Assembly: GCA_035531115.1 (NCBI GenBank)
Contig: DATKTP010000243.1
Location: forward strand, 23,433 to 47,432
Reading direction: 5' to 3'
Source: Candidatus Deferrimicrobium sp.
Lineage (GTDB): Archaea > Asgardarchaeota > Lokiarchaeia > Helarchaeales > HEL-GB-A
DNA: 24,000 nucleotides
Shown: in pieces, positions 3,699 to 23,000 of the stretch
How the letters are laid out: each line of letters begins with the position of its first letter
How positions within the stretch are numbered: position 1 is the first letter of the stretch
The notes under the pieces: generated by a model
What the model saw: only the letters and a program-made list of their open reading frames with translations
Told to the model about the DNA's origin: nothing
Database searches by the model: none
Program-made: the position numbers and the translations under genes

Positions 3699-4229
3699 AT
3701 GAGACAGAATTTTATGCCGCATGAAAATACGCCAGATAGTAAATTAACTTCATTCGAAAAGGGGATTAAAAAGCGACTTAGTAAAGAAAGGCAGTTAATT
3801 GAATGGATAATCGGTGAATATATAATAGGTGTAAATTCAAAATGGCACAGTGATAATTTTCCAAGTACTCAACTTACCAAAGTTGTACTTAACATTACTG
3901 GAAGAAGCCGTAGAGATTTTTCTTCGACACACCGTTTAATACGTGAGATTTTAAAAGAATGGGAGGATAATGGAGTTTGTGAATATATAACAACCACTAA
4001 ATATGCGCATTGTAGAAAGACAAAGATGATTTATCATTTTCCAATGAATGGCTTAAAGAAAATAAAAGAAATGATTATTGATCACCATATTGAATTCATT
4101 AAAAATTGGAATCAATGGGAACGCTATGTAAATAATGAAGATGTTATGAAAACGCGCGAAAATATCATTAAGTTACTTCTCTTTGAGTATAATAATAAAA
4201 TTCGTTTAAGAATTTTGAGTTATTCCTGA
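3699..4229 (+). CDS. Hypothetical protein (possible winged-helix fold)
   Basis: 176-aa ORF with no competing ORF. The segment STQLTKVVLNITGRSRRDFSSTHRLIREILKEWEDNGVCEYI looks like a helix-turn-helix plus wing. No family was recognised. Confidence 0.5.
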   Translation: MRQNFMPHENTPDSKLTSFEKGIKKRLSKERQLIEWIIGEYIIGVNSKWHSDNFPSTQLTKVVLNITGRSRRDFSSTHRLIREILKEWEDNGVCEYITTTKYAHCRKTKMIYHFPMNGLKKIKEMIIDHHIEFIKNWNQWERYVNNEDVMKTRENIIKLLLFEYNNKIRLRILSYS

Positions 4230-5103: not shown

Positions 5104-6324
5104 TTACTTTTTAGATTTTGTTAAAAACTTCCGATAACTATTATTATATAGGACTTCAGCTTCTGAATCGTTTAATTTATTCGATAGTTTCGCTGCCCTT
5201 TTATATAATTGAGCGGCTGCAAGATACATACCTTCAGCAGCACGACTTCGTGCTTCCTTAAGAACCATGGCACGTTCGTCTTCGAGATTTTGTTTTTCAA
5301 TTTCGTATGAAGGAGTTTTTGGTATTGCATAACGGGTATAATAGATAAGAACAATTATTCCGATTATTGCAATTAAACTTATTATAAGAATGAAAATAAT
5401 GGATAAATTTGGAATTTCGATAGTTAATGTCCAGTGAATTAGATTTAGCCAGAGACGTAAATTATCAACACTATCAATCCAGTGGACGCCCGTATAATCA
5501 TAACTCCCTGTATCTGTAACATTCAGATCACTAAACATGACAGTTGAACCGCACAACACAATTCGAGCTGAACCTTGTTGAATAGCAAATAACCAGGGAG
5601 TTGAATAAATTATTGATTCATTATATTCTAAATAAGAATTGGAATATCCCGTTGAAATTATACCGCTTTCCTGTGTGACATTTAATCCAGAGGTAAATGT
5701 CAAAATATTTTTTAGTTTATACTTAATTGGATGGAATAATTTAAAATTGGTTTTCGCAATTTCAACTACCTCGCGCTTTCCAATGGGAGTATGGTCAGTT
5801 CCATTATGGTGTAAATCATACTGAGTGAATAATGCAGGAATACTCAGTGCTTGAGTAATATTGTTTAAATAATCAGCATGACCTGTTATATTTTCATCAG
5901 GTACGGGGACACTCACATCATTATAGTTACAAAGAAGGATCAAATTTCCCCCAAGTTCTGTATAATTTTTAAGTAAATCTATTTCAGTTATCGAAAAATT
6001 GCCGTCAGGTCCAGGATTCCCGATAATAATAAGGTCGTAATACAACATTTTTGTTAAATTTTCAAATTCCGCCTTATTTAAATAGACTTTACAATCATTC
6101 GTTTGATTAAGGTACGATAATGCGGTTTTAAAACGAGTATTTGAGTAGGTATAATATTGATCATGTGCCTCATCAAAAAGAATTGAAAAAGGACTTGAAG
6201 AAGAAGTGGCTTTCACATTTGCTAAAAAGAACTGGGTACAAAATAAAGTTATCAAAGTAATGACCATAAGGCTTAAAGCCGCTTTTTTGTAATACGAATT
6301 TAGTTTCAAGATCCAGAACCTCAA
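5104..6324 (-). CDS. Type-I membrane protein with an extracytoplasmic DUF4350-like (GATase1-like) domain, many N-glycosylation sequons and a helical cytosolic tail
   Basis: It has an N-terminal hydrophobic signal or anchor (AALSLMVITLITLFCTQFFLANVKA). ILFDEAHDQ...DLIIIGNPG...GGNLILLCN...ARIVLCGSTVMFSD...DNLRLWLNLIHW matches the DUF4350 pattern. A C-terminal TM (LSIIFILIISLIAIIGIIVLIYY) is followed by a tail of about 75 aa. The TTG start is uncertain. Confidence 0.7.
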   Translation of the reverse strand: MRFWILKLNSYYKKAALSLMVITLITLFCTQFFLANVKATSSSSPFSILFDEAHDQYYTYSNTRFKTALSYLNQTNDCKVYLNKAEFENLTKMLYYDLIIIGNPGPDGNFSITEIDLLKNYTELGGNLILLCNYNDVSVPVPDENITGHADYLNNITQALSIPALFTQYDLHHNGTDHTPIGKREVVEIAKTNFKLFHPIKYKLKNILTFTSGLNVTQESGIISTGYSNSYLEYNESIIYSTPWLFAIQQGSARIVLCGSTVMFSDLNVTDTGSYDYTGVHWIDSVDNLRLWLNLIHWTLTIEIPNLSIIFILIISLIAIIGIIVLIYYTRYAIPKTPSYEIEKQNLEDERAMVLKEARSRAAEGMYLAAAQLYKRAAKLSNKLNDSEAEVLYNNSYRKFLTKSKK

Positions 6325-11266: not shown

Positions 11267-11458
11267 ATGTCAAAGAAAAAATCAAAGCGATCGCGGCGTC
11301 GAGGAAGAGAAGGGCCAATGCCCTTTGCAGGAGCTGGATTAATTCGCTTTTTTGAAGAAGAATCAAGCGGTGTAAAAGTGGGACCAATTGTGACTGCTAT
11401 TATTTCCTTAATCTTAATAATTGCAGTAGCAATCGGGAATGCAGTATTTCAGGTCTAA
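11267..11458 (+). CDS. secG: Preprotein translocase subunit Sec61-beta (archaeal SecG)
   Basis: 63 aa with a basic N-terminus. It contains GAGLIRFFEEE..GVKVGP followed by a single C-terminal TM (IVTAIISLILIIAVAIGNAVF), which is the tail-anchored Sec61-beta architecture. Confidence 0.8.
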   Translation: MSKKKSKRSRRRGREGPMPFAGAGLIRFFEEESSGVKVGPIVTAIISLILIIAVAIGNAVFQV

Positions 11459-11495: not shown

Positions 11496-12125
11496 TTAGT
11501 CAGGTTCTGTTAATTTTCGTAATTCCTCGAGGTCCTTTCGCGCTTTCTCTTTTCGAGAAATAGGCTCTGCGGGCTCTTCTGCAGGAATATCTGGTAGAGG
11601 GCCTTCTCCTAAGATTAATTCTGCTTCAAATCGGGAGAGTTCCTGATTAGCTTCAAGGTCTGAATCAAGTTCGTCTGTACTTGACATTTCAGCATAAATT
11701 TCGCCTACTTGGTCGATTTCTGCCATAGCAGCATCAGCTTCAGCGGCAACTTGCTCTGCTTTTTCGATGTTAATGTCTTTTTGTATAGTTTTCATTTCCT
11801 GCAGACCTATTTTAACCGCATTATCAACGCCTTTGATATCTTCCGCCTGATCAATGACAATAATCATATTTTCCAAACGTGAAGCATAATTTACGTAACG
11901 TTCAGCATATTTATTTAATCTGGACCATTTAACTAGTGCTTGTTTCGACGCTCGCTTGTTTCCACTCTTATAATATTGTTTCGCTTTATAATAATCCATT
12001 TGGGCTCGTTTTTTAAAGGCTCGCTCTCGTAACTCGATTTTATTAATCATTTGTCTCAATTGAGTGATAGTACTTTCCTTATCTTTTTTACCTCGTCCAG
12101 GTAATAACTTTTTCATGAAAGACAA
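11496..12125 (-). CDS. ESCRT-III subunit, Vps20/32/60 (Snf7/CHMP4-7)-like
   Basis: 209 aa. By eye it aligns to Snf7/CHMP4: NKRASKQALVKWSRLNKYAERYV...LENMIIVIDQAEDIKGVDNAVKIGLQEMKTIQKDINIEKAEQVAAEADAAMAEIDQV versus NKRAALQALKRKKRYEKQL...LE..NTNTEVLKNMGYAAKAMK...MDIDKVDELMQDI. It has an acidic C-terminal half and terminal Pro-rich and LxxLRKL motifs. Confidence 0.85.
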   Translation of the reverse strand: MSFMKKLLPGRGKKDKESTITQLRQMINKIELRERAFKKRAQMDYYKAKQYYKSGNKRASKQALVKWSRLNKYAERYVNYASRLENMIIVIDQAEDIKGVDNAVKIGLQEMKTIQKDINIEKAEQVAAEADAAMAEIDQVGEIYAEMSSTDELDSDLEANQELSRFEAELILGEGPLPDIPAEEPAEPISRKEKARKDLEELRKLTEPD

Positions 12126-12200
12126 TCAAATCACATCCTAACGACATTTATTGTAAGTTGTTTCATTAATTTAAACATTTCATAATTATAGTGAATGAAT

Positions 12201-14924
12201 TCATTTTAATTGAGTAGTAAGTGAATTAAAAAGGGCTTCAATTTGTTGTATATCGGGTTGTTTTGGGGTAGTAACAACGAAAACAATGAGGGATTGAGTT
12301 GATTCAATTATTTTTGCGATCGAAAAAGCGATTTTAAATCCTTCTTTTGAAATGAGAAATACTGGTAAATCAGTATCAGAAATTATTTTGTCAATAACCC
12401 ATCCTTTTTGAAGAAGTGCATCTTGGATATGAGTTATTATAAGGGATGGAGTTTCGGAAAGAGTTTTGATGAAAATTTTTTCATGCAAATTAGAAGACCC
12501 GACGGGATAAAGATGTTTTCGATATTTATAAAGAAGTAGGCGTTTCATATAATCTTCAAGTTGATTTTTAGGAAGATTAATTTCGAAAAAAGGAGTTTTA
12601 GATTCACTAAGATCTTGAACTTTCATATCATCTTGTAATGGTGATGATGGGGAACTTGGAGGCAGTGTAATAAAGGTGGTCTCATCGGAGGGCTTTTCAG
12701 GAGAGCTGGGTGTTAAACTAGAAAGGTCAGGTATTTCAGGAACATCAGGGCGTATAATAATTGGTCTATCCATTTGATCTATAATTTTCGGAAGGCTTTC
12801 TCTACCTGCATGTTGGCTGATCCGTGGACGGATGCGAGCAACAAAGATGCGATTTGTCGTGATTGATTCATCGGCAATCACGCATACCCCTACTGGAAGA
12901 CTACGGAAAAAGGCAGCATCGTTTACTTCATGGGGGACATTACCAGGGGCACGATGAACAAAAGAATCTATATCTGAGGAGTACGTGAGAAAATGGCAAA
13001 AAGATTTGTCTAATTGGGAAAGAATTTGTACATTGGTTGCACTCGGTTGTTGAGTACAAAGAACTAATCCGCACCCTGGTTTTCGGCCTAATTTTGCATA
13101 TTGGACAAGGGGTTCTGATGCCGCTGTATTTCCACGTGCTGGTGCGAGAAGATGGGCTTCATCAATGAGAATCCAAGTTATTGGAATACTCTCAATTGCT
13201 TCACCCTCATCGATAGAAATTTTAGCAGCTTCAACTTGGCGGGATATTTGAAGCCGAGCACGAAGCACTTTTCGTGCGAGAATTCCAGTAATTAATGCAT
13301 GAAGATTTTGGTCGAGCACGCTCACATCTACAATTGATATTTGATTGGGTCTTGACAATTCAATAAGGGGTGTTCCTTCATCTGAAAAAATACCCCATTC
13401 TTTGGCAATTTCAAATCGCGAGACCATAGCCCTTCGGGTTTGACGTGTAAAGCCCTTATCCTTGTCGGTAACAAATGTAGAGGTGTTCATACAACGAATT
13501 ATATCTTCGAGAGAATACTTATCCCCTTTTCCTTTCACTTTTACTATAGAATCTTTCAATTCGGCTTGAAATCCTTCCTGAACTAATTTAATCGTTTTTT
13601 CAATAAGGATACCACGTGGACTAAACCGACTGACATCGAAAACATAACACCAATCATCAACACTTAACTCTGAGGGTCTAATGGAGAAGGATTCATCTTT
13701 TGTTTCCTTAGGTGTTAAATTAAAGTGCCCTAAGGGAACAAATACTTTTACATTTTCTTGAAAAGATTTTGGTTCTAGATTCCATTTTTCTAGAATTTTA
13801 CGTTCTTTTTCCTCCCAATTTGCGTATTTCATACTCCAATAAACGCCAAGGGGATCCAGGATAATAACTCCAATACCTATCTGCGCCGTAGCTAGTTCTT
13901 CGGCAATAACACCCATCGTATAACTTTTACCACTTCCACGATGCCCCGATATAAAAATTACATGAGGTTGAGTACAATCAAGTAAGAGTGTTCGACCATA
14001 GTGCCCTAATCCGTGAGCAGGGCGTTCCGAAATTTTCCCAATGTTAAGAGTCCCCTTCAAGCCAATTTTCCGATGCAACCCTTCAGAACGCCCAATTACA
14101 ACAGCTCCGGTCTCATTATCAACCAATAATTTTAAATGTTCTTTAATATGGGGGGTAAAGGTATTGAAAATTTCCTCATCCCAGATTTTCGTCTCTCCGA
14201 GAACATAAGCTAACGCCAGATGAATGGTTTCAAAATCTGAGACTTCATTCTCAAGAAGTAGATCAACTTTAGCCTTGCAAAATCGACGAAATTCCGGCGT
14301 ATTGGGATATTGATCCGGTTGAAAGTCCGAGACTTCCCAAATATAGTAATCGAGGCTATCACCTTTCGAGAGGTTTTCTTTCGGTATAATCAGTTCATAA
14401 GCTTGAGTGAGGATTGCTTCATCTCGGGTTATAAGATAACAAATGGTCAAGCACTTTATCTTTTCAATGCCCGTAACGTTATTTAAATTTTCTAAAAGCT
14501 GTATCCTATATTTTTCTTCTTTGGTCTTCTCCAATGCTTGATAGAGAATAATTGAACTGCCAGGACTGGGGGATTCCTCTTCATATACATGATTAAAGAG
14601 GACATCTGGAATTCTTTTTAGAAAGGGAAATTCTTCAATTCGTAAGGTGGCAATCATAGCATGTTGAAGCTTATTCGCCGAGATCGGATCCTCTCGTAAT
14701 AATTTAATAAGCCAATCTTCAATATCCACATCAGGTAAAATCTCCTTGATTAATTTTAAAATGGTATCTCTCAAATTCTGCAGATGCTGAATATCACTCA
14801 CTAAATTATATTGTAATATATAAATATCCAATAATAGAATTTGTTCTTTTAGTGATTTGGGAACAAGATCCCGAACTTTATTAAAAACTTTGATGATATC
14901 GTTATGTTCTATCACATAATTCAC
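12201..14924 (-). CDS. HerA/FtsK-superfamily (DUF87-type) P-loop ATPase with a unique N-terminal helical domain (about 270 aa) and a C-terminal linker plus alpha/beta domain (about 180 aa)
   Basis: Walker A is HVIFISGHRGSGKSYTMGVIAEEL (nt 13923-13946). Walker B is ITWILIDEAHLLAP (nt 13152-13175). GCGLVLCTQQPSATN, SRFSPRG and RIRPRISQHAGRE are typical of HerA-like DUF87 ATPases. No TM segments were seen. Confidence 0.8.
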   Translation of the reverse strand: MNYVIEHNDIIKVFNKVRDLVPKSLKEQILLLDIYILQYNLVSDIQHLQNLRDTILKLIKEILPDVDIEDWLIKLLREDPISANKLQHAMIATLRIEEFPFLKRIPDVLFNHVYEEESPSPGSSIILYQALEKTKEEKYRIQLLENLNNVTGIEKIKCLTICYLITRDEAILTQAYELIIPKENLSKGDSLDYYIWEVSDFQPDQYPNTPEFRRFCKAKVDLLLENEVSDFETIHLALAYVLGETKIWDEEIFNTFTPHIKEHLKLLVDNETGAVVIGRSEGLHRKIGLKGTLNIGKISERPAHGLGHYGRTLLLDCTQPHVIFISGHRGSGKSYTMGVIAEELATAQIGIGVIILDPLGVYWSMKYANWEEKERKILEKWNLEPKSFQENVKVFVPLGHFNLTPKETKDESFSIRPSELSVDDWCYVFDVSRFSPRGILIEKTIKLVQEGFQAELKDSIVKVKGKGDKYSLEDIIRCMNTSTFVTDKDKGFTRQTRRAMVSRFEIAKEWGIFSDEGTPLIELSRPNQISIVDVSVLDQNLHALITGILARKVLRARLQISRQVEAAKISIDEGEAIESIPITWILIDEAHLLAPARGNTAASEPLVQYAKLGRKPGCGLVLCTQQPSATNVQILSQLDKSFCHFLTYSSDIDSFVHRAPGNVPHEVNDAAFFRSLPVGVCVIADESITTNRIFVARIRPRISQHAGRESLPKIIDQMDRPIIIRPDVPEIPDLSSLTPSSPEKPSDETTFITLPPSSPSSPLQDDMKVQDLSESKTPFFEINLPKNQLEDYMKRLLLYKYRKHLYPVGSSNLHEKIFIKTLSETPSLIITHIQDALLQKGWVIDKIISDTDLPVFLISKEGFKIAFSIAKIIESTQSLIVFVVTTPKQPDIQQIEALFNSLTTQLK

Positions 14925-14996
14925 CTAATATAACAAAAAAAATGCCTTTTATTACTATTAACGAGATTCTGAAAAAAAGGAAAGGCATCGAGCTTT

Positions 14997-15617
14997 TTAC
15001 CGTTCTTCTTTGATTTTTCGAATCTCTTCCTCTAATTTTTGAATTCGAGTATCTGCTGGAGTTGATGGTAGCGCGACTCCCGTTTCTACTGCAATTTCTT
15101 GATTAATTTCTTCCATTGTTTTTTGGACATCAGTATCAGTTATTTCTGTTGAAACGGTTATCTCTTCTAGACCTCCTTGCGCGACTTCTTGTGCCATCTC
15201 AAAATGTTCGATTTGTGAATCAATACCGTCGACAAGCTGGGCAATATTTTGGGTCCGGACGGAACTTTTCAAAGCACCTAATGCCCGTGTTATTCCTCCT
15301 AATATCTTCGCGGTCTCGGCAACAGCTTGTGATTGCTTCAATTTCATTAATAAATTCATAATATGTAGGCGATACGCATCTATCCCCCAAGCCCACTTCT
15401 GATACCGAACGAAATGCTCTGCATAGAGCTTTGCAGCATCACTGTTCCCATCCATCTGATATTTTTTCGCTTTAGTCCGATTATTTCTTGCCTCTTTTTC
15501 GAGTTGTTTGCGTTGGCGGTCCAACTTTCTCGTAAAAACATCGACCTTGAAGATGATGTCATTTAAATTTGTACCCTTCAGCCAATTCACAAATTTTTTC
15601 CAAGACATTTCAACCAT
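14997..15617 (-). CDS. ESCRT-III subunit, Vps2/24/46 (CHMP1-3)-like
   Basis: 206 aa. By eye it aligns to CHMP2: LDRQRKQLEKEARNNRTKAKKYQMDGNSDAAKLYAEHFVRYQKW versus LDRERQKLETQEKKIIADIKKMAKQGQMDAVRIMAKDLVRTRRY. The C-terminus IQKLEEEIRKIKEER is MIM1-like. An alternative ATG start lies 9 nt downstream (15608). Confidence 0.85.
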   Translation of the reverse strand: MVEMSWKKFVNWLKGTNLNDIIFKVDVFTRKLDRQRKQLEKEARNNRTKAKKYQMDGNSDAAKLYAEHFVRYQKWAWGIDAYRLHIMNLLMKLKQSQAVAETAKILGGITRALGALKSSVRTQNIAQLVDGIDSQIEHFEMAQEVAQGGLEEITVSTEITDTDVQKTMEEINQEIAVETGVALPSTPADTRIQKLEEEIRKIKEER

Positions 15618-15659
15618 CTAGCTTTTAATTACCTTTTAGAATTTGCAATTACCATTAAC

Positions 15660-15681
15660 TTATAGTAAATTTATAGTAAAT
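15660..15681. repeat. Perfect tandem 11-mer x2 (TTATAGTAAAT) in the divergent ESCRT-III/Vps4 control region
   Basis: Read directly: 15660-15670 and 15671-15681 are identical. On the minus strand each unit reads ATTTACTATAA (TATA-like), 43-64 nt upstream of the ESCRT-III (Vps2/24/46-like) start. Confidence 0.6.
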
Positions 15682-15844
15682 GCTACCTTATTTATTTTAT
15701 TTATTTAGGTTTTCAGTTGAGCGTAAAAGCAATTAGTATTTTATTAATAAAATATTAAAGTGAGAATGAGATAAGTTCTGATAGAACTATTTTCTTGGAA
15801 AAGAGTGAAAATTGCTAGGTAAGGATAGAATAGGATAGATAAAT

Positions 15845-16999
15845 ATGTCTAAAGAACTTTTTCAGCACGCGATGAATATTGCGAAGAAGGCAATCCAATT
15901 TGATGAGAGTGGAAATTATAAAATGGCAGTGAACAATTATGTTGAAGCGGCGGATATTCTCACAAGATTTATTAAGACCTCGGGGAATCCTGAAATGAAG
16001 AAGATCTGCTTTTCTAAAGCAGAACAGTATTTACAACGTGCGAAAGAGTTACGGGATGCAATTTCGCCGGAGGGGCCTGGGCATCCTTCAGAGGGAACCG
16101 GAAGATCGGCAAAGGAGACGACCCAATTACGGGGAGCCTTGGAAGAAACGATCACGAGGGAAAAACCAGATGTAAGCATGGCAGAGGTAGCTAACTTGGA
16201 AAATGCCAAACAAGCCTTACGAGAGGCAATTGTGCTTCCCCTCCAGCGACCAGATCTTTTTCAGGGGGCCCGAAAACCCTGGCGAGGCGTGCTCTTATTT
16301 GGACCTCCAGGGTGTGGTAAAACATTATTGGCAAAAGCCATTGCAGCCGAGTGTGAAGCTACCTTTTTTTCGGCAGATGCGGCCTCTTTGGTAAGTAAAT
16401 GGCTAGGTGAAAGCGAGAAGTTAATTAAAGAATTATTTAAACTGGCGAAAGAAGACCAACCCTCTATAATTTTTATCGATGAGGTTGACTCAATTGCGAC
16501 CGCCAGAGGAAATAGGGATGAAATTGGAGGAGAGCGACGTATAAAAACGCAGCTCTTAATAGAAATGGAAGGTGTTAAAGGGAAGGCGCAAGAAAGAATT
16601 ATCATTCTCGGCGCCACAAATCGTCCATGGGAAATAGATCCTGCTTTTCGGCGTAGATTTGAGAAAAGAGTCTATGTGCATTTACCAGATGAAGCAGCAC
16701 GGGAAAAAATGTTTATGATCCATACAGACGGAATTCCGCTAGAAGCGGATGTTAATTTTAGTGAATTAGCAAAAATAACAGAGGGGTATACAGGTTCCGA
16801 CATAGCACTCCTTTCCCGCGAAGCCATTATGATACCGATTCGAGAACTCGATAAAATAGGCGCGCTATCAGACGATGCTGAACCGCGGGACGTGAAACGA
16901 ACAGATTTTATTGAGGCAATGTCAAAAATGAAGCCGGTTGTTTCACCAGATGAATTACGGAAATTTGAAGAATGGAACGATCAATTTGGTGCGGAATAA
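15845..16999 (+). CDS. vps4: Vps4 AAA+ ATPase (N-terminal MIT domain plus a single AAA cassette)
   Basis: The MIT-like N-terminus is AMNIAKKAIQFDESGNYKMAVNNYVEAADIL...AEQYLQRAKELRD. Walker A is GPPGCGKT (16301-16324) and Walker B is IIFIDEVDS. It also has the second-region-of-homology sequence ILGATNRPWEIDPAFRRRFEKR and the C-terminal helix ELRKFEEWNDQFG. Confidence 0.95.
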   Translation: MSKELFQHAMNIAKKAIQFDESGNYKMAVNNYVEAADILTRFIKTSGNPEMKKICFSKAEQYLQRAKELRDAISPEGPGHPSEGTGRSAKETTQLRGALEETITREKPDVSMAEVANLENAKQALREAIVLPLQRPDLFQGARKPWRGVLLFGPPGCGKTLLAKAIAAECEATFFSADAASLVSKWLGESEKLIKELFKLAKEDQPSIIFIDEVDSIATARGNRDEIGGERRIKTQLLIEMEGVKGKAQERIIILGATNRPWEIDPAFRRRFEKRVYVHLPDEAAREKMFMIHTDGIPLEADVNFSELAKITEGYTGSDIALLSREAIMIPIRELDKIGALSDDAEPRDVKRTDFIEAMSKMKPVVSPDELRKFEEWNDQFGAE

Positions 17000-17036
17000 T
17001 TATAATATTCAGATTGCAGTTCAATCTTTTTTAGAT

Positions 17037-17507
17037 CTATAAGGGAGTTGGAAAAATTCCTAATGTTTTTAGTTTCTGATATGCATTTGTAAATTTAGAC
17101 ATAATGTTTTCTTCCTGAATGAACGCTGAAATGTTATATCCCTTCTTTTCTAGCAGAATTTTAAATTTAAAAATATCAGAAATGAGAAATTTAAGTTGTT
17201 CATTATAGATTTGAGCATCAATCTTCCCGAGTTGGTAATTTGAGATGATGGTATCGAGGGTTGCAATGCTAGCATAGAATTCTGCTTGAGCATGTTCTAA
17301 AGTATGGGCTTCAACTTCTGCTTCGGTGATCCTAATGGGAATTTCTAATGGAGGCGGGTTTGATTGATTTTTCACGGTTGTTTGTAAAATATTTTTAACG
17401 GTTTGTGTCTGCTGGACAACTTTTCGGTTTAATTTAGTGATTTCTGCTTCTAATTCGTCGATTGACTTTTCATCCATTTCATTTTTGGGTTTATTTTTTT
17501 GGATCAT
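17037..17507 (-). CDS. ESCRT-I subunit Vps28-like (N-terminal core domain only)
   Basis: 156 aa. AQAEFYASIATLDTIISNYQLGKIDAQIYNEQLKFLISDIFKFKILLEKKGYNISAFIQEENIMSKFTNAYQKLK aligns by eye to the human VPS28 core [75 protein letters not shown]. Its start is 9 nt after the upstream Vps23-like stop. Confidence 0.7.
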   Translation of the reverse strand: MIQKNKPKNEMDEKSIDELEAEITKLNRKVVQQTQTVKNILQTTVKNQSNPPPLEIPIRITEAEVEAHTLEHAQAEFYASIATLDTIISNYQLGKIDAQIYNEQLKFLISDIFKFKILLEKKGYNISAFIQEENIMSKFTNAYQKLKTLGIFPTPL

Positions 17508-17516
17508 AATGGAAAA

Positions 17517-18419
17517 TCACTGAGTAATACCCATTTCTTTCAATTTCTGATTAATCAAATGTAATTCTTTTTGATAATTTTTGTAGAGCTGTGCGTATTC
17601 CGTAGAATTGATTTCACCACATTCGAATTTATCTTCCAAAGTCCGGATTAAATCCTCTACAGCAATTTTTTCACTTTGAAGATCGAGAATTTGTTTATCT
17701 CTCGGATTTTGAGGAAGTAAGATTTCAGCAATTCTATCACCAAGCCTTGGAACGTTATGAACATCCATACGCCCTTCAAGGCGCGCGACTTCCTCCGTCT
17801 TATTAACCAAGGATTTCTGTAAGGATTGAAGTTCATCCTCTAACATGTCAATTTGTGTCTTTAACTCCTTTACCTTCGGGGTTTCCTCTGGGATTTCTGA
17901 GGAAAACGGGGTAGAAGTCTCAGCTGAAGGTTGTTCTGATTTAATGGGAGGAGCGGGAGAAGGAGCTTGTGGTATAACAGGTAATTGTGTCTGAAATGGG
18001 GTGGGTGGAGCTTGTTCTAGCTGGTTCGGAACTTCTTCTTGGGGAGAAGTTAATGTAGATGCGAAAGTATCCGGTAACTTTGGCGAAATTCTAGCAAAGA
18101 TGCCTTTTATTGAATTTATGACCTGATAGAGATGGTATTCAGAACGCCAATAGGTTATTATTCGCAAATTTAACTCACCAGATCTAGGATCTACCTGTGG
18201 ATGATCAGTGGGAGTAACCATTATGACTTTAGGAGCTTGCCGAGGAAAATCGGAAGGGATTAGAATTTCAACTTCAAATTGAATATTTTCATAAGGTCCG
18301 CGTCCAGGAATGGAGCCCCGCCATTTAGTTAAATTTCCTGCTACTGGCTCGAATTCTCGTGCCCGTCTATACATAAGTTGGGCTTCTCTGGCGAGGATAA
18401 ATTCAAACTGGGAACTCAT
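17517..18419 (-). CDS. ESCRT-I subunit Vps23/TSG101-like: UEV (catalytically dead E2-fold) domain, Pro-rich linker, coiled-coil stalk, steadiness-box-like C-terminus
   Basis: The E2-like N-terminus is FEPVAGNLTKWRGSIPG...FEVEILIPSDFPRQAPKV...HPQVDPRSGELNL, where Leu/Asn replaces the active-site Cys. The P-rich segment spans aa 112-181. The C-terminus AVEDLIRTLEDKFECGEINSTEYAQLYKNYQKELHLINQKL resembles the TSG101 steadiness box AIEDTIFYLGEALRRGVIDLDVFLKHVRLLSRKQFQLRALMQK. I prefer the ATG at 18419 (TGGAGG 10 nt upstream) over the TTG at 18443 in the track. Confidence 0.8.
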   Translation of the reverse strand: MSSQFEFILAREAQLMYRRAREFEPVAGNLTKWRGSIPGRGPYENIQFEVEILIPSDFPRQAPKVIMVTPTDHPQVDPRSGELNLRIITYWRSEYHLYQVINSIKGIFARISPKLPDTFASTLTSPQEEVPNQLEQAPPTPFQTQLPVIPQAPSPAPPIKSEQPSAETSTPFSSEIPEETPKVKELKTQIDMLEDELQSLQKSLVNKTEEVARLEGRMDVHNVPRLGDRIAEILLPQNPRDKQILDLQSEKIAVEDLIRTLEDKFECGEINSTEYAQLYKNYQKELHLINQKLKEMGITQ

Positions 18420-18534
18420 AGGATAGTGCCTCCAAAGATACAAATCAATTGAAATCTTAAATAAAGTAGTAAATGCTTTCCTTTAATATTTTCTATTAAT
18501 TTTAGTCCCTATAAAATATTGAGGATTGAGGATT

Positions 18535-18945
18535 TTAAGTATCAGAGAGTTTTTTTACCACTTGAGTTATTCGGTCTTGGAAGACGCGCACTGATCCAAT
18601 AAAATCAATAATTAATTTTGATAAGTCACTTATTTTTTCCAATTGAGCGTTTTCTCTTTCATCAAGGCGCTTATTTAATACATTGATACTCTCTTTAACT
18701 GCTTCAAAAGAAATAATTTCTTCAGATATTAATTTTCTCAAACTTTTCAATTCTTTTTCGATTGTATGCAATTGTTTATACACCTCATTATTTACAGTTT
18801 CTTGTGTACGAATCATATCGGCATTGAGTATATTCATTGCTTCACAGATCTGTTTTAAACTAGCTAAAGTTGGAACGTCACCTAATGGAGTTTTAATTGC
18901 CTCAATTTTAATATCTATTTTTTTCTCGTCTGCGTCGCCAACCAT
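18535..18945 (-). CDS. Coiled-coil protein of unknown function (candidate additional ESCRT-I stalk subunit)
   Basis: 136-aa ORF with an ATG start, predominantly heptad-like helical sequence. It is co-directional with, and upstream of, the Vps23-like and Vps28-like genes. No family was recognised. Confidence 0.55.
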   Translation of the reverse strand: MVGDADEKKIDIKIEAIKTPLGDVPTLASLKQICEAMNILNADMIRTQETVNNEVYKQLHTIEKELKSLRKLISEEIISFEAVKESINVLNKRLDERENAQLEKISDLSKLIIDFIGSVRVFQDRITQVVKKLSDT

Positions 18946-19105
18946 TCAAGATCCCCATTTCTTTAAACTTTTTTATTGACTTAAATCACAACGTCTTTAA
19001 TTCGCGTCTTTGGTCCTTTGAAATCCTCATTTATCCTAATTTTTATATTTCAGAATTTTCATCTCTTCAATAATTTTTTAAAATTCGCTATACTATTTCA
19101 ATTTA

Positions 19106-19351
19106 ATGACTAATAAAATCTCTAATCGGTTTATTATCACTTCCGAAATAATAATCGGGGAGTGGGATTGGAATAGACTAGAGCGCTGTATAGTCTGTAA
19201 TCTCCCCATTACGCAAGAGCAGAAATTAGGTAGATGCCCTGATTGTGGTCATTCCGCACATCTTGAACATTTATTAGAATGGATCAAAATTAAGGGTGTG
19301 TGTCCTTATTGTAAAGGAAAAATAACTGCGGAAAAAATAATTATAAATTAA
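19106..19351 (+). CDS. Small RING-type zinc-finger protein (candidate E3 ubiquitin ligase)
   Basis: 81 aa. The ligand spacing is C28-x2-C31-x15-C47-x-H49-x2-H52-x2-H55-x10-C66-x2-C69. This matches the RING cross-brace spacing with His at ligand positions 4-6. It lies directly upstream of the ubiquitin, E2 and E1 genes. Confidence 0.7.
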   Translation: MTNKISNRFIITSEIIIGEWDWNRLERCIVCNLPITQEQKLGRCPDCGHSAHLEHLLEWIKIKGVCPYCKGKITAEKIIIN

Positions 19352-19590
19352 ATAGATTACTAAACGCGTAGGAAAATACAAAACTTCATAGCCATCCTCA
19401 TTAGATCGTTACCTCTCCAGCTATTGCTGTAACAATATTATCTTGTAATAAAAGATCGATATGAAAAAAATACAAAACTTAATATTTTATTCTTAATTAA
19501 ATTAATATTAAAATAGAAATGAAGTGTATTACGAAAAATATAAAATTAAAATCAAGCAAATCAAAAAGATATGATGGAGGAAATTAGGAA

Positions 19591-19827
19591 ATGATTCTAA
19601 AAATCGTGTCTGCAATTGGGGGGGATGTGATCGAACTCAATACACCCCCAACTACAACAATTTCTGAGATTAAAAGGGAAATTAGCCGAAGAAAACGAAT
19701 TCCAGAAGGAATTTTTGTTCTCGCTTTCAGGGGTACTGAAATAAGAAATGAAAATCTATCTTTGTTAGATATAGGGGCTTCTGACTACGACAAGATTTAT
19801 TTAATCACCCGAACGGAAGGTGGGTAA
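19591..19827 (+). CDS. Ubiquitin-like beta-grasp protein ending in Gly-Gly-stop
   Basis: 78 aa. TISEIKREISRRKRIP aligns to ubiquitin TIENVKAKIQDKEGIP, and VLAFRGTEI aligns to RLIFAGKQL. The C-terminus ...LITRTEGG is followed directly by TAA. A GGAGG Shine-Dalgarno sits at 19576-19580. Confidence 0.85.
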   Translation: MILKIVSAIGGDVIELNTPPTTTISEIKREISRRKRIPEGIFVLAFRGTEIRNENLSLLDIGASDYDKIYLITRTEGG

Positions 19828-19833
19828 TTCTAC

Positions 19834-19866
19834 TTCTTTTTTAAATAACCACATCTTTTTTAATTT
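19834..19866 (+). terminator. Two T6 runs after the ubiquitin gene (candidate terminator or attenuator)
   Basis: T6 runs occur at 19837-19842 and 19856-19861, within 40 nt of the ubiquitin stop. The E2 gene starts 132 nt downstream. Confidence 0.3.
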
Positions 19867-19959
19867 TAATTAATAATATTTTTTTAGCTGCTCTGAACCA
19901 TCTGAATGTGGTTAGAATAATTTATAATTACCACACATCTGAATAGTAACTAAAAATAA

Positions 19960-20445
19960 ATGGTAACCAAGATGTTAAGTGAGGAAGATTACTATAATAG
20001 GTTAGTGTATGAAGCGAAAATATTAGAAGAGGAAGAGCCGTCGTTCAAACCAGTGGCAGGAGATCTAAGAGTTTGGAACGGATTTATTTTAGGAACAGGG
20101 CTTTATGATGGGGGAGTCTTTGAAATTCAATTAACTTTAACGAGGAAGTTCCCATACGAACCTCCAAAAATCAGATGGATAACTAAAACATATCATCCCA
20201 ACATTTCATTGCAAAGTAAAATTTGTGTTGGAATACTTGGAAAAGATTGGGTTCCAACTATGAGTGTTGCAGGTGTGATAGAAACACTCAGAAATTTATT
20301 AAGTTTTCCCAATCCCGCCTCGCCATTGAATACTGAGGCAGCAAATCTCCTGAAAAAAGATAAAAATAGATATGAAATGGAAGTTAAGAAATATGTAGAA
20401 AAATACGCAACTTGGGAAAATTTAAGAAAAACCCAAACGATGTAA
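19960..20445 (+). CDS. E2 ubiquitin-conjugating enzyme (UBC fold, active)
   Basis: It has the canonical motif YHPNISLQSKICVGILGKDWVPTMSV, with HPN at aa 79-81 and the catalytic Cys89 at nt 20224-20226. The downstream SFPNPASPLNTEAA motif is also present. Confidence 0.9.
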   Translation: MVTKMLSEEDYYNRLVYEAKILEEEEPSFKPVAGDLRVWNGFILGTGLYDGGVFEIQLTLTRKFPYEPPKIRWITKTYHPNISLQSKICVGILGKDWVPTMSVAGVIETLRNLLSFPNPASPLNTEAANLLKKDKNRYEMEVKKYVEKYATWENLRKTQTM

Positions 20446-20454
20446 GGGGGTTTT

Positions 20455-21732
20455 TTGGGTATAACAACAAAAAATAAGAATCAGGTTAAGGAAGTTCAGG
20501 TTCAGGGAGAATTAGAAAGATATAGCAGACAAATGCTTTTAAAGAATTGGAATCAAGAGAAATTATTGAATTCTACTGTTTTTATTGCAGGAGTTGGGGC
20601 TCTTGGGACGATCATTGCGTTAAATCTTGCGATGATGGGTGTGGGACACTTAATTTTATGTGATTTTGATACCATAGAGCTCTCGAATTTAGCGCGCCAG
20701 GTACTCTTTGAGAATAAAGATATTGGTAAATCAAAAGTTGTAACGGCAAAGGAAGCTCTTGAGCGAATCAATCCTACAATTAAAATTACCGCTATCAATA
20801 AGCAGTTGGAAACGATTAATCATAAGATTATTGAAGCATGTGATATAGTAGCAGATGGTTTGGATACATTTGAAGCACGAAGATGGCTCAACTCCGTTTG
20901 TATCACACTAAATAAGCCCTTAGTACATGGTGGTATGTTTGGATGGATGGGAAATGTACAGGTCGTTATTCCATTTAAAAGACCCTGTTTAGAATGCCAT
21001 CCACTCATCCCTCAAGAGCGCCTTCAAAAACCTTGTACCCCGCCAGGGGATGCGCGAAAAGAGTTAGAAGCAGAGGAAAAAGAAGAAAAAATTCCAACAC
21101 TAGCTACGGTTTCTACGATTATAGCTGGAATTCAATCACAAGAAATCATTAAGTTACTTATAGGATCCGATAAAATCTTGGATGAATTTCTTTTTTATGA
21201 TGGCCAATCGGAGACAATAACAAGAATGCCACTCATTCTTAATCCAAATTGCATTGTCTGCGGAAAATACCGGTTAGAGGGGATAGATTTCGCAATAGAT
21301 AACGAAGATACTATTCGCGATATAAAAAATAGGTTAATAATGTCTTGGGGTTTAAAAGAACCAATGCGGGTTGTTATTAAAGGTGTAATCCAAGAAGATA
21401 ATATAAAAATTCATGATTTAAAACTCAAAGAAAGAGAAGCGATTTTTGTATATGATAAAATTCTTTCAAAACCCTTAAAACTATATACGGTCTTAAAAGG
21501 AGCTGAGTTTATTCCAGAAGTTTCTGTCATAGCTCCGAAAAAAGAAGTTAAACCAGGTTCCAAATGGTCAAAAATGCATGAACTCGCTGTAGATGTGGGG
21601 AAAGTAACCTATCAAAAAAATCTTTTGCAAATTCAAGCAACCGATGCGGAGACCCCTATTCGATTCTTTCAGACAACGTCAATCTCAAAAATGAAGAAGA
21701 AAATAAGATATAAGTTAAAGGAAAGTAAATAA
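20455..21732 (+). CDS. E1-like ubiquitin-activating enzyme (ThiF/MoeB/UBA adenylation domain) with a C-terminal extension of about 150 aa
   Basis: RYSRQMLL...VFIAGVGALGTIIALNLAMMGVGHLILCDFDTIELSNLARQ is the Rossmann/ATP-binding signature. Two CxxC pairs are present (C178/C181 and C266/C269), with a candidate catalytic Cys194 in KPCTPPG. It has a TTG start 9 nt after the E2 stop, preceded by AAGGGGG. Confidence 0.9.
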   Translation: MGITTKNKNQVKEVQVQGELERYSRQMLLKNWNQEKLLNSTVFIAGVGALGTIIALNLAMMGVGHLILCDFDTIELSNLARQVLFENKDIGKSKVVTAKEALERINPTIKITAINKQLETINHKIIEACDIVADGLDTFEARRWLNSVCITLNKPLVHGGMFGWMGNVQVVIPFKRPCLECHPLIPQERLQKPCTPPGDARKELEAEEKEEKIPTLATVSTIIAGIQSQEIIKLLIGSDKILDEFLFYDGQSETITRMPLILNPNCIVCGKYRLEGIDFAIDNEDTIRDIKNRLIMSWGLKEPMRVVIKGVIQEDNIKIHDLKLKEREAIFVYDKILSKPLKLYTVLKGAEFIPEVSVIAPKKEVKPGSKWSKMHELAVDVGKVTYQKNLLQIQATDAETPIRFFQTTSISKMKKKIRYKLKESK

Positions 21733-21778
21733 ACTATATATTTGAAATTGAATTAATAAGCTTTCGAGGATTTCCACG

Positions 21779-22609
21779 ATGTATGAAAAACATAAAATAC
21801 CTTATTTTGTACAAAAGAAGATGGAAGAGGGCGGTCCATCGAAAGAAATTTTCCGAGGCAGAATCCTCTTTGATCAATCACGGGAAAAGGATAAATGGCT
21901 TAATGAACATCATTCAGAATTTTTACTATTATTAACGAGTAATGGGTATTCCATCAGTAAAATAACGGAAGGTCCAATTAATTATGCCAATATGAAAGAT
22001 TTTGATATTCTCGTTTTATCCGCAATCCGAACCGGTTCTATGGATTTCAATGCAGTTGAAATTCGATCTATTGCGCAATTTGTGAGTGATGGGCGGGGAT
22101 TATTTCTAATTGGTAATGAATATATTGGGAAAGAGAAGAATTTCAACTATCTATTCAATCAATTATTTGGAATTTCTTTTAGTGATCAAGTATTAGATAA
22201 AGAAAATAATGCAAATCCGGCAGCAGGATGGAGCCATAGCCCGATTATTAGTATTTTTGTCGATCATAAAATAACTAAACAACTTGAAGAAATTGTTCTT
22301 CGAGATGGCTCTGGGTTAAATTTAACAAAATCTTCAGAACCTCTTGCTTTCTCTGCTCCAACAGCAGAACCTGCCTGCGTGCCTGTCATTGGAGCGACAG
22401 AATATGGAAAAGGAAAAGTAATTGCAATTGGCGGGGACGGTATTTTTACAAATGACCCTAGAATCGGTATTAATGCCCGGGATAATGAGCAATTCATTTT
22501 AAACGCATTGGATTGGATGCCATCTTGGACGGATTGTCCACAATGTGGAAGTGGAGTGCCGCCTGCTGAATCACTATGTCCTCGTTGTAAAACACGCGTT
22601 CTACGGTAA
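21779..22609 (+). CDS. Cytosolic DUF4350-like (GATase1-like fold) protein with a C-terminal zinc ribbon
   Basis: ILFDQSREKD...FDILVLSAIRTG...FVSDGRGLFLIGNEY...GKVIAIGGDGIFTND...DNEQFILNALDWM parallels the ectodomain of the 5104-6324 protein. The C-terminal CPQCG-x9-CPRCK motif (nt 22535-22606) is a zinc ribbon. No signal peptide or TM was seen. It lies 46 nt downstream of the E1 gene on the same strand. Confidence 0.65.
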   Translation: MYEKHKIPYFVQKKMEEGGPSKEIFRGRILFDQSREKDKWLNEHHSEFLLLLTSNGYSISKITEGPINYANMKDFDILVLSAIRTGSMDFNAVEIRSIAQFVSDGRGLFLIGNEYIGKEKNFNYLFNQLFGISFSDQVLDKENNANPAAGWSHSPIISIFVDHKITKQLEEIVLRDGSGLNLTKSSEPLAFSAPTAEPACVPVIGATEYGKGKVIAIGGDGIFTNDPRIGINARDNEQFILNALDWMPSWTDCPQCGSGVPPAESLCPRCKTRVLR

Positions 22610-22616
22610 AGGTTGC

Positions 22617-23000
22617 TTAAGAACCTTCATCTACCTTTACTACTTCATCCTTTAAATTCTGAGCGAATAATCTGAGCATCCCTAAAGGAATTTTATTGAC
22701 CTTCGAAGAAAGAATCGCATAACTGATATCATTATTTACGGGACCCACCATTAAAAAGAAATTTTCGGATTCAAATATCTGATTGATGAAATTTGCTTTA
22801 TCCATATGCAAATCTTTTAAAGCACGCTCTCCTGCATCGATTAATCGATTTGCGGAACCCCAAATGCCTTCTGAATCATTTAATCCACATGTTTGCTCTG
22901 CAATTTTTAGTCCATCATTATTTAAAAGCATTACACTCCCGGCACTCATCTTCCGGATTACATTAGTTAGAATGCGATCAAATACTTTTGATTTATGCAT
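22617..23000 (-). CDS. Roadblock/LC7 (MglB-like) domain protein
   Basis: 127 aa with an alpha-beta-alpha-beta-beta-alpha pattern: FDRILTNVIRKMS / GSVMLLNNDGLKIAEQ / GSANRLIDAGERALKDL / INQIFESENFFLMVGPVNNDISYAILSS. This is typical of the Roadblock/LC7 family. Confidence 0.65.
   Translation of the reverse strand: MHKSKVFDRILTNVIRKMSAGSVMLLNNDGLKIAEQTCGLNDSEGIWGSANRLIDAGERALKDLHMDKANFINQIFESENFFLMVGPVNNDISYAILSSKVNKIPLGMLRLFAQNLKDEVVKVDEGS

Follow-up and report, generated by a model that had tools for sequence, protein, structure and literature searches.

The locus described here extends from position 11496 to position 22609 of the window, that is, of the whole stretch of 24,000 nucleotides that was analyzed. 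The ORF listing and the Pfam scans revealed 12 ORFs in it, which are the following:

11496..12125, minus strand, ESCRT-IIIB (Vps20/32/60, Snf7/CHMP4-type), 209 aa; Pfam Snf7, E = 2e-16
12201..14924, minus strand, HerA-like hexameric-translocase-type ATPase, 907 aa; Pfam DUF87/HerA central domain, E = 1e-16
14997..15617, minus strand, ESCRT-IIIA (Vps2/24/46, CHMP1-3-type), 206 aa; Pfam Snf7, E = 9e-21
15845..16999, plus strand, Vps4 AAA ATPase, 384 aa; MIT, AAA, AAA_lid_3 and Vps4_C
17037..17507, minus strand, putative Vps28 N-terminal (core/steadiness-box) domain protein, 146-156 aa; transitive homology
17517..18443, minus strand, UEV-Vps23 (ESCRT-I ubiquitin receptor), 300-308 aa; UQ_con and Vps23_core
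18535..18945, minus strand, p136, conserved Helarchaeota coiled-coil protein, first gene of the ESCRT-I block
19106..19351, plus strand, small RING-H2-type E3 ligase candidate, 81 aa; Pfam zf-RING_2
19591..19827, plus strand, ubiquitin, 73-78 aa; Pfam ubiquitin, 1.8e-7
19960..20445, plus strand, E2 ubiquitin-conjugating enzyme, 157-161 aa; Pfam UQ_con, 2.6e-33
20455..21732, plus strand, E1 ubiquitin-activating enzyme, 425 aa; Pfam ThiF, 6.8e-66
21779..22609, plus strand, p276, GIFT/DUF4350-like with a C-terminal zinc ribbon; sub-threshold Pfam matches

The ORFs are organized in four blocks of alternating strand (-, +, -, +), with 9 to 239 bp between genes. The first block embeds the genes for ESCRT-IIIB, the HerA-like ATPase, and ESCRT-IIIA, the second that for Vps4 alone, the third those for the Vps28 N-terminal domain protein, UEV-Vps23, and p136, and the fourth those for RING, ubiquitin, E2, E1, and p276. 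This arrangement had already been recognized in the first-pass annotation, whose gene families also stand and whose count of eleven genes has to be corrected to 12. ESCRT-IIIB, ESCRT-IIIA, Vps4, UEV-Vps23, RING, ubiquitin, E2, and E1 all lie above the Pfam gathering cut-off; the profile searches thus recovered the Snf7, UEV, UQ_con, ThiF, ubiquitin, and zf-RING families, and only Vps28 was not recovered directly. The finding that ten of the 12 consecutive ORFs belong to ubiquitin or ESCRT families is far beyond chance, and the existence of a ubiquitin-ESCRT gene cluster at this locus is confirmed. Neither tRNA genes nor Rfam elements were found in the window.

Within the ubiquitin cascade, the ubiquitin itself (Pfam 31.2 bits versus a cut-off of 25.4) ends in ...RTEGG with the stop codon directly after, and the E2 (UQ_con, 115 bits) carries the HPN motif and the active-site Cys ('YHPNISLQSKICVGIL'). 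The E1, whose gene starts 9 bp 3' of that for E2, combines a ThiF/MoeB-type adenylation domain (222 bits) with a C-terminal extension of about 150 aa, and in PDB it is matched best by eukaryotic Uba1, namely by its active adenylation domains (2e-36). The RING assignment is marginal by score (zf-RING_2 1.7e-6, 28.7 bits versus a cut-off of 27.3; Prok-RING_1 1.7e-4), and the Cys/His ligands C-x2-C-x12-C-x2-C-x-H-x2-H...C-x2-C are visible in the sequence. The block is closed by p276, which has a zinc ribbon pattern CxxC-x10-CxxC and matches, all below the cut-off, DUF4350 (1.1e-5), ABC_transp_aux (2.9e-4), and OST48_N (1.4e-3), as well as DZR (0.0075). The same protein is weakly similar to a second GIFT-like protein of the window. 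Neither the window nor the 32.5-kb contig was found to encode a JAMM/MPN deubiquitinase.

As regards the ESCRT-I block, UEV-Vps23 matches UQ_con (4.6e-17, 62.4 bits), UEV (1.5e-4), and Vps23_core (1.6e-6, 28.5 bits versus a cut-off of 26.8). Alignment to Ubc13 places an Asn at the position of the catalytic Cys ('GELNLRII'), which implies that the UEV domain is an inactive E2 variant. The analysis of the adjacent Vps28-like protein was less direct. The protein itself has no meaningful match in Pfam, PDB, or NCBIfam, and a word-indexed homologue search returned only three close relatives; an exhaustive phmmer search, instead, yielded 35 representative homologues, and 22 of the resulting 36 sequences (query included) match Pfam VPS28, the best at 3.7e-19. 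Among the homologues retrieved by phmmer, residues ~70-150 of the protein align to residues ~10-90 of proteins of 200-230 aa. The family profile matches the N-terminal core of yeast Vps28 (2f6m_B and 2p22_B, E~0.005-0.009); its longer members also bring in a match to the C-terminal domain of Vps28 (2j9w, 6e-9). The protein of this locus stops at residue 156, after the N-terminal homology, and lacks the four-helix bundle that, at the C-terminus of Vps28, makes the link to ESCRT-II. The initial "Vps28-like" call is therefore retained, through transitive homology, for the N-terminal core domain and is lost for the C-terminal one; the gene most probably encodes the Vps28 N-terminal core domain only, a reading that is indirectly supported.

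The block begins with p136, for which 35 homologues sharing 61-100% identity were retrieved, the named ones being mainly Helarchaeota plus one from Promethearchaeota. Its AF2 model (pLDDT 87) consists of a beta-hairpin (16-25) and a single helix of 109 residues, and no match was found in Pfam, PDB, or Foldseek, the fold and PDB profile searches giving coiled-coil noise. The idea that p136 might represent the missing Vps28 C-terminal domain was discarded (hhalign versus the Vps28 family profile, probability 0.5%). An uncharacterized gene, asCOG005522, has been reported to adjoin UEV-Vps23, RING, and ubiquitin genes (bioRxiv 10.1101/2023.07.25.550441); the position of p136 matches that of this gene, and the two are putatively the same. 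The Vip3 similarity reported for asCOG005522 was not reproduced with p136 in the fold and PDB profile searches.

Both ESCRT-III families are represented, as had been claimed from the sequence, and the A- and B-types are separated by their best PDB matches: an Asgard Vps20/32/60-like protein (9fn1_U, 8e-17), a Heimdall ESCRT-IIIB (9ftl), and yeast Snf7 for ESCRT-IIIB (Snf7, 60.5 bits); CHMP1B (3e-10), CHMP1A, CHMP2A, and CHMP3 for ESCRT-IIIA (74.7 bits). The proline-rich C-terminus of ESCRT-IIIB ('LPDIP') was recognized by eye as a putative MIM2-like motif. The order of the Vps4 domains is an N-terminal MIT (2.8e-14, 53.4 bits), a single AAA+ domain (8.4e-43, 146 bits), and a Vps4_C helix (1e-8, 35.5 bits). 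A scan of genomic contigs with Vps4 returned one short contig, of little use for synteny. ESCRT-II (Vps22/36, i.e., EAP30, and Vps25) was not detected by Pfam among the ORFs of the window, p176 and p591 included, or in the 32.5-kb contig, the rest of which was judged from precomputed Pfam annotation; the Pfam model for ESCRT-II does detect the Asgard Vps25 in the related locus L018 (8.6e-18), which served as positive control. With neither ESCRT-II nor the Vps28 C-terminal domain in the window or its contig, the link from ESCRT-I to ESCRT-III is unexplained in cis, and this bridge must be either encoded elsewhere in the genome or of a different kind. The reduced ESCRT-I of this clade, consisting of UEV-Vps23, a Vps28 N-terminal domain, and a conserved coiled-coil protein, sharpens in this way the question of how Asgard archaea pass ubiquitin recognition to ESCRT-III.

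The HerA-like gene embedded between the two ESCRT-III genes is the least-described part of the locus. In the AF2 model of its product (pLDDT 82.8), residues 1-251 form an N-terminal alpha-solenoid, followed by a barrel and by a RecA-like core at 320-710; a disordered linker separates this core from a C-terminal alpha/beta domain at 780-907. When this model was compared with PDB by Foldseek, the top 50 matches were all HerA translocases, with E-values down to 6e-15 and 9x1m, 4d2i, 7wrw, and 8wld as leading structures. The protein scores far below the cut-offs of NCBIfam helicase_HerA (46 bits versus 970) and of the anti-phage HerA models (18-22 bits versus 800-850). With HerA, known from the archaeal HerA-NurA DNA-end-resection translocase and from the bacterial Sir2-HerA and DUF4297-HerA defence systems, it shares the central fold of ~450 residues, comprising the barrel and the RecA-like core with the Walker A GSGKS; however, both its N-terminal alpha-solenoid and its C-terminal alpha/beta domain are unique, and the constant neighbours of its gene are ESCRT-III genes rather than those for a nuclease or Sir2 partner. 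Indeed, no NurA, Mre11/Rad50, Sir2, or DUF4297 gene lies beside it. A defence-island reading was rejected, given that the PADLOC defence-HerA matches are weak and partial and that the neighbours are ESCRT-III and housekeeping genes; an MIT-like N-terminus was likewise unsupported, the isolated N- and C-terminal domains having no Pfam family.

The origin of the contig deserves attention since its NCBI copy is labelled 'Candidatus Deferrimicrobium sp.', and identical proteins (HUY01099.1-HUY01116.1) are deposited under this bacterial name. According to this label, the locus might be a ubiquitin-ESCRT island horizontally acquired by a bacterium. The flanking genes, however, are archaeal housekeeping ones (PolD large subunit, uL1/uL10/P1 stalk, Sec61-beta, uS7, and EF-1alpha), and the PolD large subunit shares 75% identity with its counterpart in the Helarchaeota MAG GCA_013375455.1, with a gene order common over >13 kb. 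The bacterial reading is thus extremely improbable and effectively refuted; its label is accounted for by mis-binning and looks like a binning error, and the name might give rise to spurious claims of ESCRT or ubiquitin systems in bacteria. The HerA-like protein and p136 are 68% and up to 73% identical, respectively, to those of relatives, the named ones being Candidatus Helarchaeota. Sequence identity therefore supports the Asgard origin proposed at first sight, and the names of the relatives, the PolD identity, and the shared gene order narrow it to the order Helarchaeales. The proteins of the locus are ~60-80% identical to named Helarchaeota sequences and no closer, which makes this a further lineage.

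The comparison with related loci revealed that three metagenome contigs, L009, L010, and L012, carry all 12 genes in identical order, except that no Vps28N ORF was detected in L009; in L001 this order is kept in part. Protein identity across these four ranges from 58% to 89%, the Vps28-like gene being at 42-49%; ubiquitin is 85-88% and Vps4 80-82% identical in all four, and p276 is kept in the equivalent position in L009, L010, and L012 with 73-77% identity. In the more distant Helarchaeota L004 and L011, the ESCRT-III/HerA block and Vps4 are ~8 kb apart and the neighbourhood of the block is devoid of ubiquitin genes, a split arrangement that points to a lineage-specific fusion of the whole ubiquitin-ESCRT set, restricted to close relatives. 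On a broader scale, an ESCRT-III gene adjoins the HerA-like gene in 22 of the 28 related loci, which represent several Asgard groups. The triplet ESCRT-IIIA/HerA-like/ESCRT-IIIB was found in Helarchaeota, in Loki/Jord/Freyarchaeia-type loci, and in Thor-like ones, and a reduced form, in which the HerA-like gene is followed by a helical partner gene and then by ESCRT-IIIB, in Heimdall-like loci; all the other neighbours of the three genes vary between lineages.

The core system had been regarded as already described, and correctly so, since gene clusters combining ubiquitin with ESCRT have been published for Hel- and Heimdallarchaeota (Hatano et al. 2022, PMC9192718) and biochemistry has been carried out on homologues. 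The present locus adds one Helarchaeales example to this pattern, with comparative use and with concepts unchanged. It shares with the clusters of Odinarchaeum LCB_4, Heimdall-, and Helarchaeota (PMC9192718; 10.1101/2023.07.25.550441) the genes for ubiquitin, E1, E2, RING E3, UEV-Vps23, a Vps28-type protein, ESCRT-IIIA/B, and Vps4, the tight ubiquitin/ESCRT clustering reported for Helarchaeota, and the uncharacterized coiled-coil gene beside UEV-Vps23, RING, and ubiquitin; it differs from them in having no ESCRT-II (Vps22, Vps25) in cis and only the N-terminal domain of Vps28. In the published analysis, no gene is linked to ESCRT-III and Vps4 as tightly as Vps25 (PMC9192718; 10.1101/2023.07.25.550441). 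The eukaryotic ESCRT-I/-III/Vps4 multivesicular-body pathway likewise has a UEV without catalytic Cys joined to a Vps23 core, a Vps28 N-terminal core, A- and B-type ESCRT-III, a Vps4 of MIT-AAA-Vps4_C type, and a GG-ended ubiquitin, whereas ESCRT-0, Vps37/Mvb12, ESCRT-II, and Bro1/ALIX are absent from this locus, which has two ESCRT-III paralogues only, a single-ThiF-type E1 of 425 aa, and operon-like blocks. The Cdv system (CdvA-CdvB-CdvC) of TACK archaea is also a membrane-scission machine with ESCRT-III and Vps4 homologues, but it lacks a ubiquitin system, UEV-Vps23, and Vps28, and CdvA is absent from the window.

On the whole, we consider it quite probable that an uncultured Helarchaeales archaeon carries this ubiquitin-ESCRT locus on its chromosome and that the modules of the locus act in a coupled mechanism. 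According to this model, the plus-strand RING-Ub-E2-E1 block would provide a eukaryote-type conjugation cascade, with a ubiquitin ready to use because it is GG-terminated, and the minus-strand p136-UEV-Vps23-Vps28N block a reduced ESCRT-I, in which the catalytically dead E2 fold would read ubiquitin and the Vps23 core would pair with the Vps28 N-terminal domain. ESCRT-IIIB might then nucleate a membrane-bound polymer joined by ESCRT-IIIA, and Vps4 (MIT-AAA) might disassemble it, leading to membrane remodelling or scission. The domain identities, the absent catalytic Cys, the GG terminus, and the gene order with its conservation are established in this analysis, and on them we infer the coupling of the cascade, ESCRT-I, and ESCRT-III steps in this organism. 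For homologues, UEV-ubiquitin binding, the Vps23-Vps28 complex, and the ESCRT-IIIB/IIIA/Vps4 interplay are found in the literature; a ubiquitin-directed action of ESCRT has already been deduced and partly tested on them (PMC9192718; bioRxiv 10.1101/2023.07.25.550441).

Different explanations of the linkage can be envisaged. The modules might be simple neighbours, with an autonomous ESCRT-IIIA/HerA-like/ESCRT-IIIB (plus Vps4) module for membrane remodelling or division, a ubiquitin system devoted to general modification and proteasomal turnover, and a juxtaposition that, in this clade, would reflect recent synteny without obligatory coupling. In L004, L005, L006, L011, and L014-L017, the triplet does occur with ubiquitin genes missing from its surroundings, and in some of these loci Vps4 is missing as well; moreover, in the close relatives the whole block of 22 genes is syntenic, and since the unrelated PolD and uS7 are equally so at this short evolutionary distance, order alone is no proof of coupling. 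However, UEV-Vps23 unites a ubiquitin-binding fold and the ESCRT-I core in one protein, and the association of ubiquitin with ESCRT recurs in several Asgard classes (PMC9192718; 10.1101/2023.07.25.550441), so that we judge independent modules to be improbable. It is somewhat less unlikely, though still doubtful, that the cascade serves mainly to regulate the ESCRT-I machinery, its target being UEV-Vps23, which would be mono-ubiquitinated and turned over or switched, rather than to tag membrane cargo for sorting. One E1/E2/RING set from Helarchaeota is known to mono-ubiquitinate a UEV-Vps23 lysine in the steadiness-box region, at which Vps28 competes, and Vps28 binds the Vps23 domain (10.1101/2023.07.25.550441); in our locus the RING and ubiquitin genes divergently adjoin the ESCRT-I block. 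Cargo tagging and such a regulation are nevertheless not mutually exclusive, and the ubiquitin-reading role of UEV implies other ubiquitinated ligands.

Besides the coupled mechanism favoured above, the HerA-like ATPase has to be considered, which most likely acts as an additional ESCRT-III partner. No mention of it was found in the searched text of several ESCRT or Asgard papers, some supplementary files included. We may tentatively suggest, as a possibility on the doubtful side, that the most conserved unit of the locus is the ESCRT-IIIA/HerA-like/ESCRT-IIIB triplet and not the ubiquitin-ESCRT fusion, and that a hexameric HerA-type translocase represents a so-far undescribed component of Asgard ESCRT-III. 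By analogy with FtsK, it is possible that this ATPase pumps DNA, outwards or inwards, at a membrane neck that is closing; alternatively, it might act on the ESCRT-III polymer itself. If the ATPase is functional, DNA handling would be linked to ESCRT-III. The assembly of Loki ESCRT-III tubes has been reported to be DNA-dependent, and either role, if true, would give this dependence a physiological context.

Within window positions 11496-22609, the ORF listing gives 12 substantial ORFs in four strand blocks; the first-pass annotation had recognized the blocks but counted only eleven genes.

Genes of the ubiquitin-ESCRT cluster (window positions, strand, product; p136 and p276, proteins without a settled family, are named by length in aa)
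11496-12125, minus, ESCRT-IIIB (block 1)
12201-14924, minus, HerA-like ATPase, 907 aa (block 1)
14997-15617, minus, ESCRT-IIIA (block 1)
15845-16999, plus, Vps4 (block 2)
17037-17507, minus, Vps28-like gene (block 3)
17517-18443, minus, UEV-Vps23 (block 3)
18535-18945, minus, p136 (block 3)
19106-19351, plus, RING (block 4)
19591-19827, plus, ubiquitin (block 4)
19960-20445, plus, E2 (block 4)
20455-21732, plus, E1 (block 4)
21779-22609, plus, p276 (block 4)

The spacers measure 72-75 bp inside block 1, and 91 bp (p136/UEV-Vps23) and 9 bp (UEV-Vps23/Vps28-like) inside block 3; the gaps between blocks are 227 bp (1/2, divergent), 37 bp (2/3, convergent) and 160 bp (3/4, divergent). A Sec61-beta gene (11267-11458, plus) converges on ESCRT-IIIB, 38 bp from its end, a place kept in every Helarchaeota locus examined (L003, L004, L009-L011 and L016 among the fetched loci). 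A Roadblock/LC7-like gene (22617-23000, minus; Pfam E=2e-4, slightly below the cut-off) converges on p276 at 7 bp and keeps this place in L009 and L010.

The claimed Snf7, UEV, UBC, ThiF, ubiquitin and RING families were all recovered by Pfam profile searches. Indeed, Snf7 (on two genes), ubiquitin (ubiquitin gene), UQ_con (E2), ThiF (E1), MIT, AAA, AAA_lid_3 and Vps4_C (all on Vps4) and, together on one protein, UQ_con and Vps23_core (plus UEV) scored above threshold, the RING gene only marginally (zf-RING_2, 28.7 bits against a cut-off of 27.3). PDB sequence searches cleanly separate the two Snf7 proteins: the 209-aa one (ESCRT-IIIB) matches an Asgard Vps20/32/60-like protein, Heimdall ESCRT-IIIB and yeast Snf7, and the 206-aa one (ESCRT-IIIA) matches CHMP1B, CHMP1A, CHMP2A and CHMP3. 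In the same search, the closest match of the E1 is eukaryotic Uba1, in its active adenylation domain. The E2 retains HPN and Cys, and ubiquitin ends in GG, immediately followed by the stop codon. In the 308-aa UEV-Vps23, aligned to Ubc13, the catalytic-Cys position of E2 enzymes is occupied by Asn; the protein thus fuses a UEV domain to a Vps23 core.

The Vps28-like protein gave no Pfam or PDB match in direct searches, and a word-indexed homologue search returned three near-identical relatives only. An exhaustive phmmer search of 1.8 billion representatives found 35 homologues, and 22 of the 36 sequences scanned one by one (query included) matched Pfam VPS28 (best 3.7e-19). Residues ~70-150 of the query align to the N-terminal ~90 residues of homologues 200-230 aa long, and the family profile matches Vps28 chains in yeast ESCRT-I core structures (E~0.005-0.009) and, via longer members, also the Vps28 C-terminal domain. 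The VPS28 matches, the alignment span and the profile matches point, at the sequence level, to a predicted short coiled coil followed by the Vps28 N-terminal (core/steadiness-box) domain. The identity proposed at first thus holds for the N-terminal domain, through homologues and profile, and not for direct profile searches or for the C-terminal domain, which the window protein lacks and which in eukaryotes contacts ESCRT-II. An N-terminal-only gene agrees with the statement that the two parts of Asgard Vps28 may sit on separate genes (Makarova et al., PMC11188069).

Neither Pfam scans of the window ORFs nor the precomputed Pfam annotation for the remainder of the 32.5-kb source contig show a match to EAP30, ESCRT-II or JAB/MPN. 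The absence of ESCRT-II is real, because the related Asgard locus L018 has a Vps25 that the Pfam ESCRT-II model picks up easily (8.6e-18). The locus, having no ESCRT-II in cis, departs from the pattern reported by Hatano et al. (PMC9192718), where no gene is linked to ESCRT-III and Vps4 as tightly as Vps25. Two conserved proteins without a family match, p591 (1851-3626, plus; C-terminal tail helical, TPR- or MIT-like by eye) and p176 (3699-4229, plus; resembling a single winged helix), are syntenic in Helarchaeota relatives; neither matches ESCRT-II models.

The Asgard origin put forward initially is supported. PolD is 75% identical to that of the Helarchaeota MAG GCA_013375455.1, which shares the order ESCRT-IIIA-HerA-ESCRT-IIIB-Sec61beta-MazG-CBS-PolD-GIFT-methyltransferase-p176-p591; the flanking genes are archaeal housekeeping ones (uL1, uL10, P1, PolD, Sec61beta, uS7, EF-1alpha), and the named relatives of HerA-like and p136 are mainly Candidatus Helarchaeota. 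The window sequence is contained in ENA metagenome contig ERZ27256847 k141_24428. At NCBI, identical proteins (HUY01099.1 PolD, HUY01106.1 Vps4, HUY01109.1 p136, HUY01113.1 E1, HUY01116.1 uS7) are filed on a 49-kb contig under 'Candidatus Deferrimicrobium sp.', of a bacterial phylum. Despite this label, the gene content of that contig is plainly archaeal (Helarchaeales), and the label is probably a binning error that misplaced the contig in a bacterial MAG. Past the 3' end of the window, after uS7 and EF-1alpha, a MULE-type transposase gene (L002 19709-21155) ends the source contig and may be the reason for the assembly break.

Window proteins were compared with the 39 fetched loci by tblastn and jackhmmer. 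L010 carries all 12 genes, within a block of 22 that keep the window's order from p591 through uS7; L009 has the same block with no Vps28-like ORF detected, L012 the cluster from p276 to HerA-like, and L001 part of it. Protein identity to these four is 58-89% (42-49% for the Vps28-like gene). The more distant Helarchaeota L004 and L011 (HerA-like 43-44% identical) retain the PolD-side neighbours of the ESCRT-III block; no ubiquitin genes were seen in either locus, and in L004 ~8 kb with fatty-acid genes separate that block from Vps4. It follows that the supercluster arrangement holds at clade level.

The core cluster is a further example of a system that, as previously recognized, is already described. 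Hatano et al. 2022 (PMC9192718) report clustering of the complete set of ubiquitin and ESCRT genes in Hel- and Heimdallarchaeota, and show UEV-ubiquitin and Vps23-Vps28 interactions; a Helarchaeia cluster of UEV-Vps23, ubiquitin, RING and the uncharacterised asCOG005522 has been described, with UEV-Vps23 mono-ubiquitinated by a Helarchaeota E1/E2/RING cascade and the Vps23 domain bound by Vps28 (2023 preprint, 10.1101/2023.07.25.550441). A ubiquitin-directed ESCRT pathway had been proposed from adjacency; at the short evolutionary distance of the close relatives synteny alone is weak evidence of coupling, and the UEV-Vps23 fusion together with this literature is the stronger argument for coupling.

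As for the accessory genes, p136 is conserved as a family, and those members that carry a name are mostly from Helarchaeota; its model (a beta-hairpin and one 109-residue helix) found no match by fold search, nor did the protein by sequence or profile searches. Because it heads the ESCRT-I block it may be a stalk partner, and its position hints that it may be identical with asCOG005522. The p276 protein, kept after E1 in relatives, has sub-threshold GIFT/DUF4350-type Pfam matches and a C-terminal four-Cys zinc ribbon. It is soluble and terminates the ubiquitin block; a second GIFT/DUF4350-like protein, p406 (5104-6324, minus), weakly similar to it (E=0.007), looks membrane-anchored by eye, with hydrophobic stretches close to its N-terminus and around residue 320, and has a helical cytosolic tail.

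The embedded HerA-like/ESCRT-III module merits separate evaluation. The AF2 model of the HerA-like ATPase (pLDDT 82.8) runs from an N-terminal alpha-solenoid through a barrel and RecA-like core to a C-terminal alpha/beta domain, which follows a disordered linker, and its top Foldseek matches are all HerA hexameric translocases. The protein scores far under the curated HerA equivalog cut-offs, and none of the HerA partners NurA, Sir2 and DUF4297 lies beside it. An ESCRT-III gene adjoins HerA-like in 22 of the 28 loci whose match reaches the N-terminal domain (loci concerned: L003-L020, L023, L026, L029, L030, L036, L039 and the window, 12201-14924, minus); only two distinct ones with full flanks lack it. 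Where only the ATPase core matches and no contig end truncates the locus, none of seven has an ESCRT-III neighbour (L027, L028, L033-L035, L037, L038). The order IIIA-HerA-IIIB is present in Helarchaeota loci, in the Thor-like locus L018, and, with an extra 345-aa helical gene, in loci with Loki-, Jord- or Freyarchaeia-named proteins; Heimdall-like loci retain HerA, a helical partner gene and IIIB. No other neighbour is constant.

HerA or DUF87 beside ESCRT-III is unmentioned in the searched text (figures aside) of the ESCRT/Asgard papers covered, one paper's supplementary files and a wider literature search. Loki ESCRT-III is reported to bind DNA and to depend on it when assembling into tubes in vitro (PMC11791191); coupling of a DNA translocase to ESCRT-III would therefore be a reasonable hypothesis.

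The helical partner, an all-helical protein of 328-346 aa without a Pfam family, follows HerA-like in Loki/Jord/Frey-type and Heimdall-like loci (L005 13067-14107; L006 11071-12108; L007 10770-11756; L008 10710-11711); the two groups are distant homologues (E~1e-12), with no counterpart in the window or other Helarchaeota loci. L031/L032 (10001-13189; protein P0090) carry HerA-like and its helical partner with no ESCRT-III gene detectable within 10 kb. The NCBI name of the protein is 'candidate division Zixibacteria bacterium', so that the case is a genuine exception or else a further mislabelled contig. L018 (3323-13096, SMTZ metagenome; Thor-like is guessed from the sample name) reads Vps25-DUF3786-Vps4-methyltransferase-ESCRT-IIIA-HerA-like-ESCRT-IIIB-540-aa protein; HerA-like therefore also lies inside an ESCRT locus that has ESCRT-II. 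A FYVE-type zinc finger is matched weakly by the 540-aa protein, which also matches the window UEV-Vps23.
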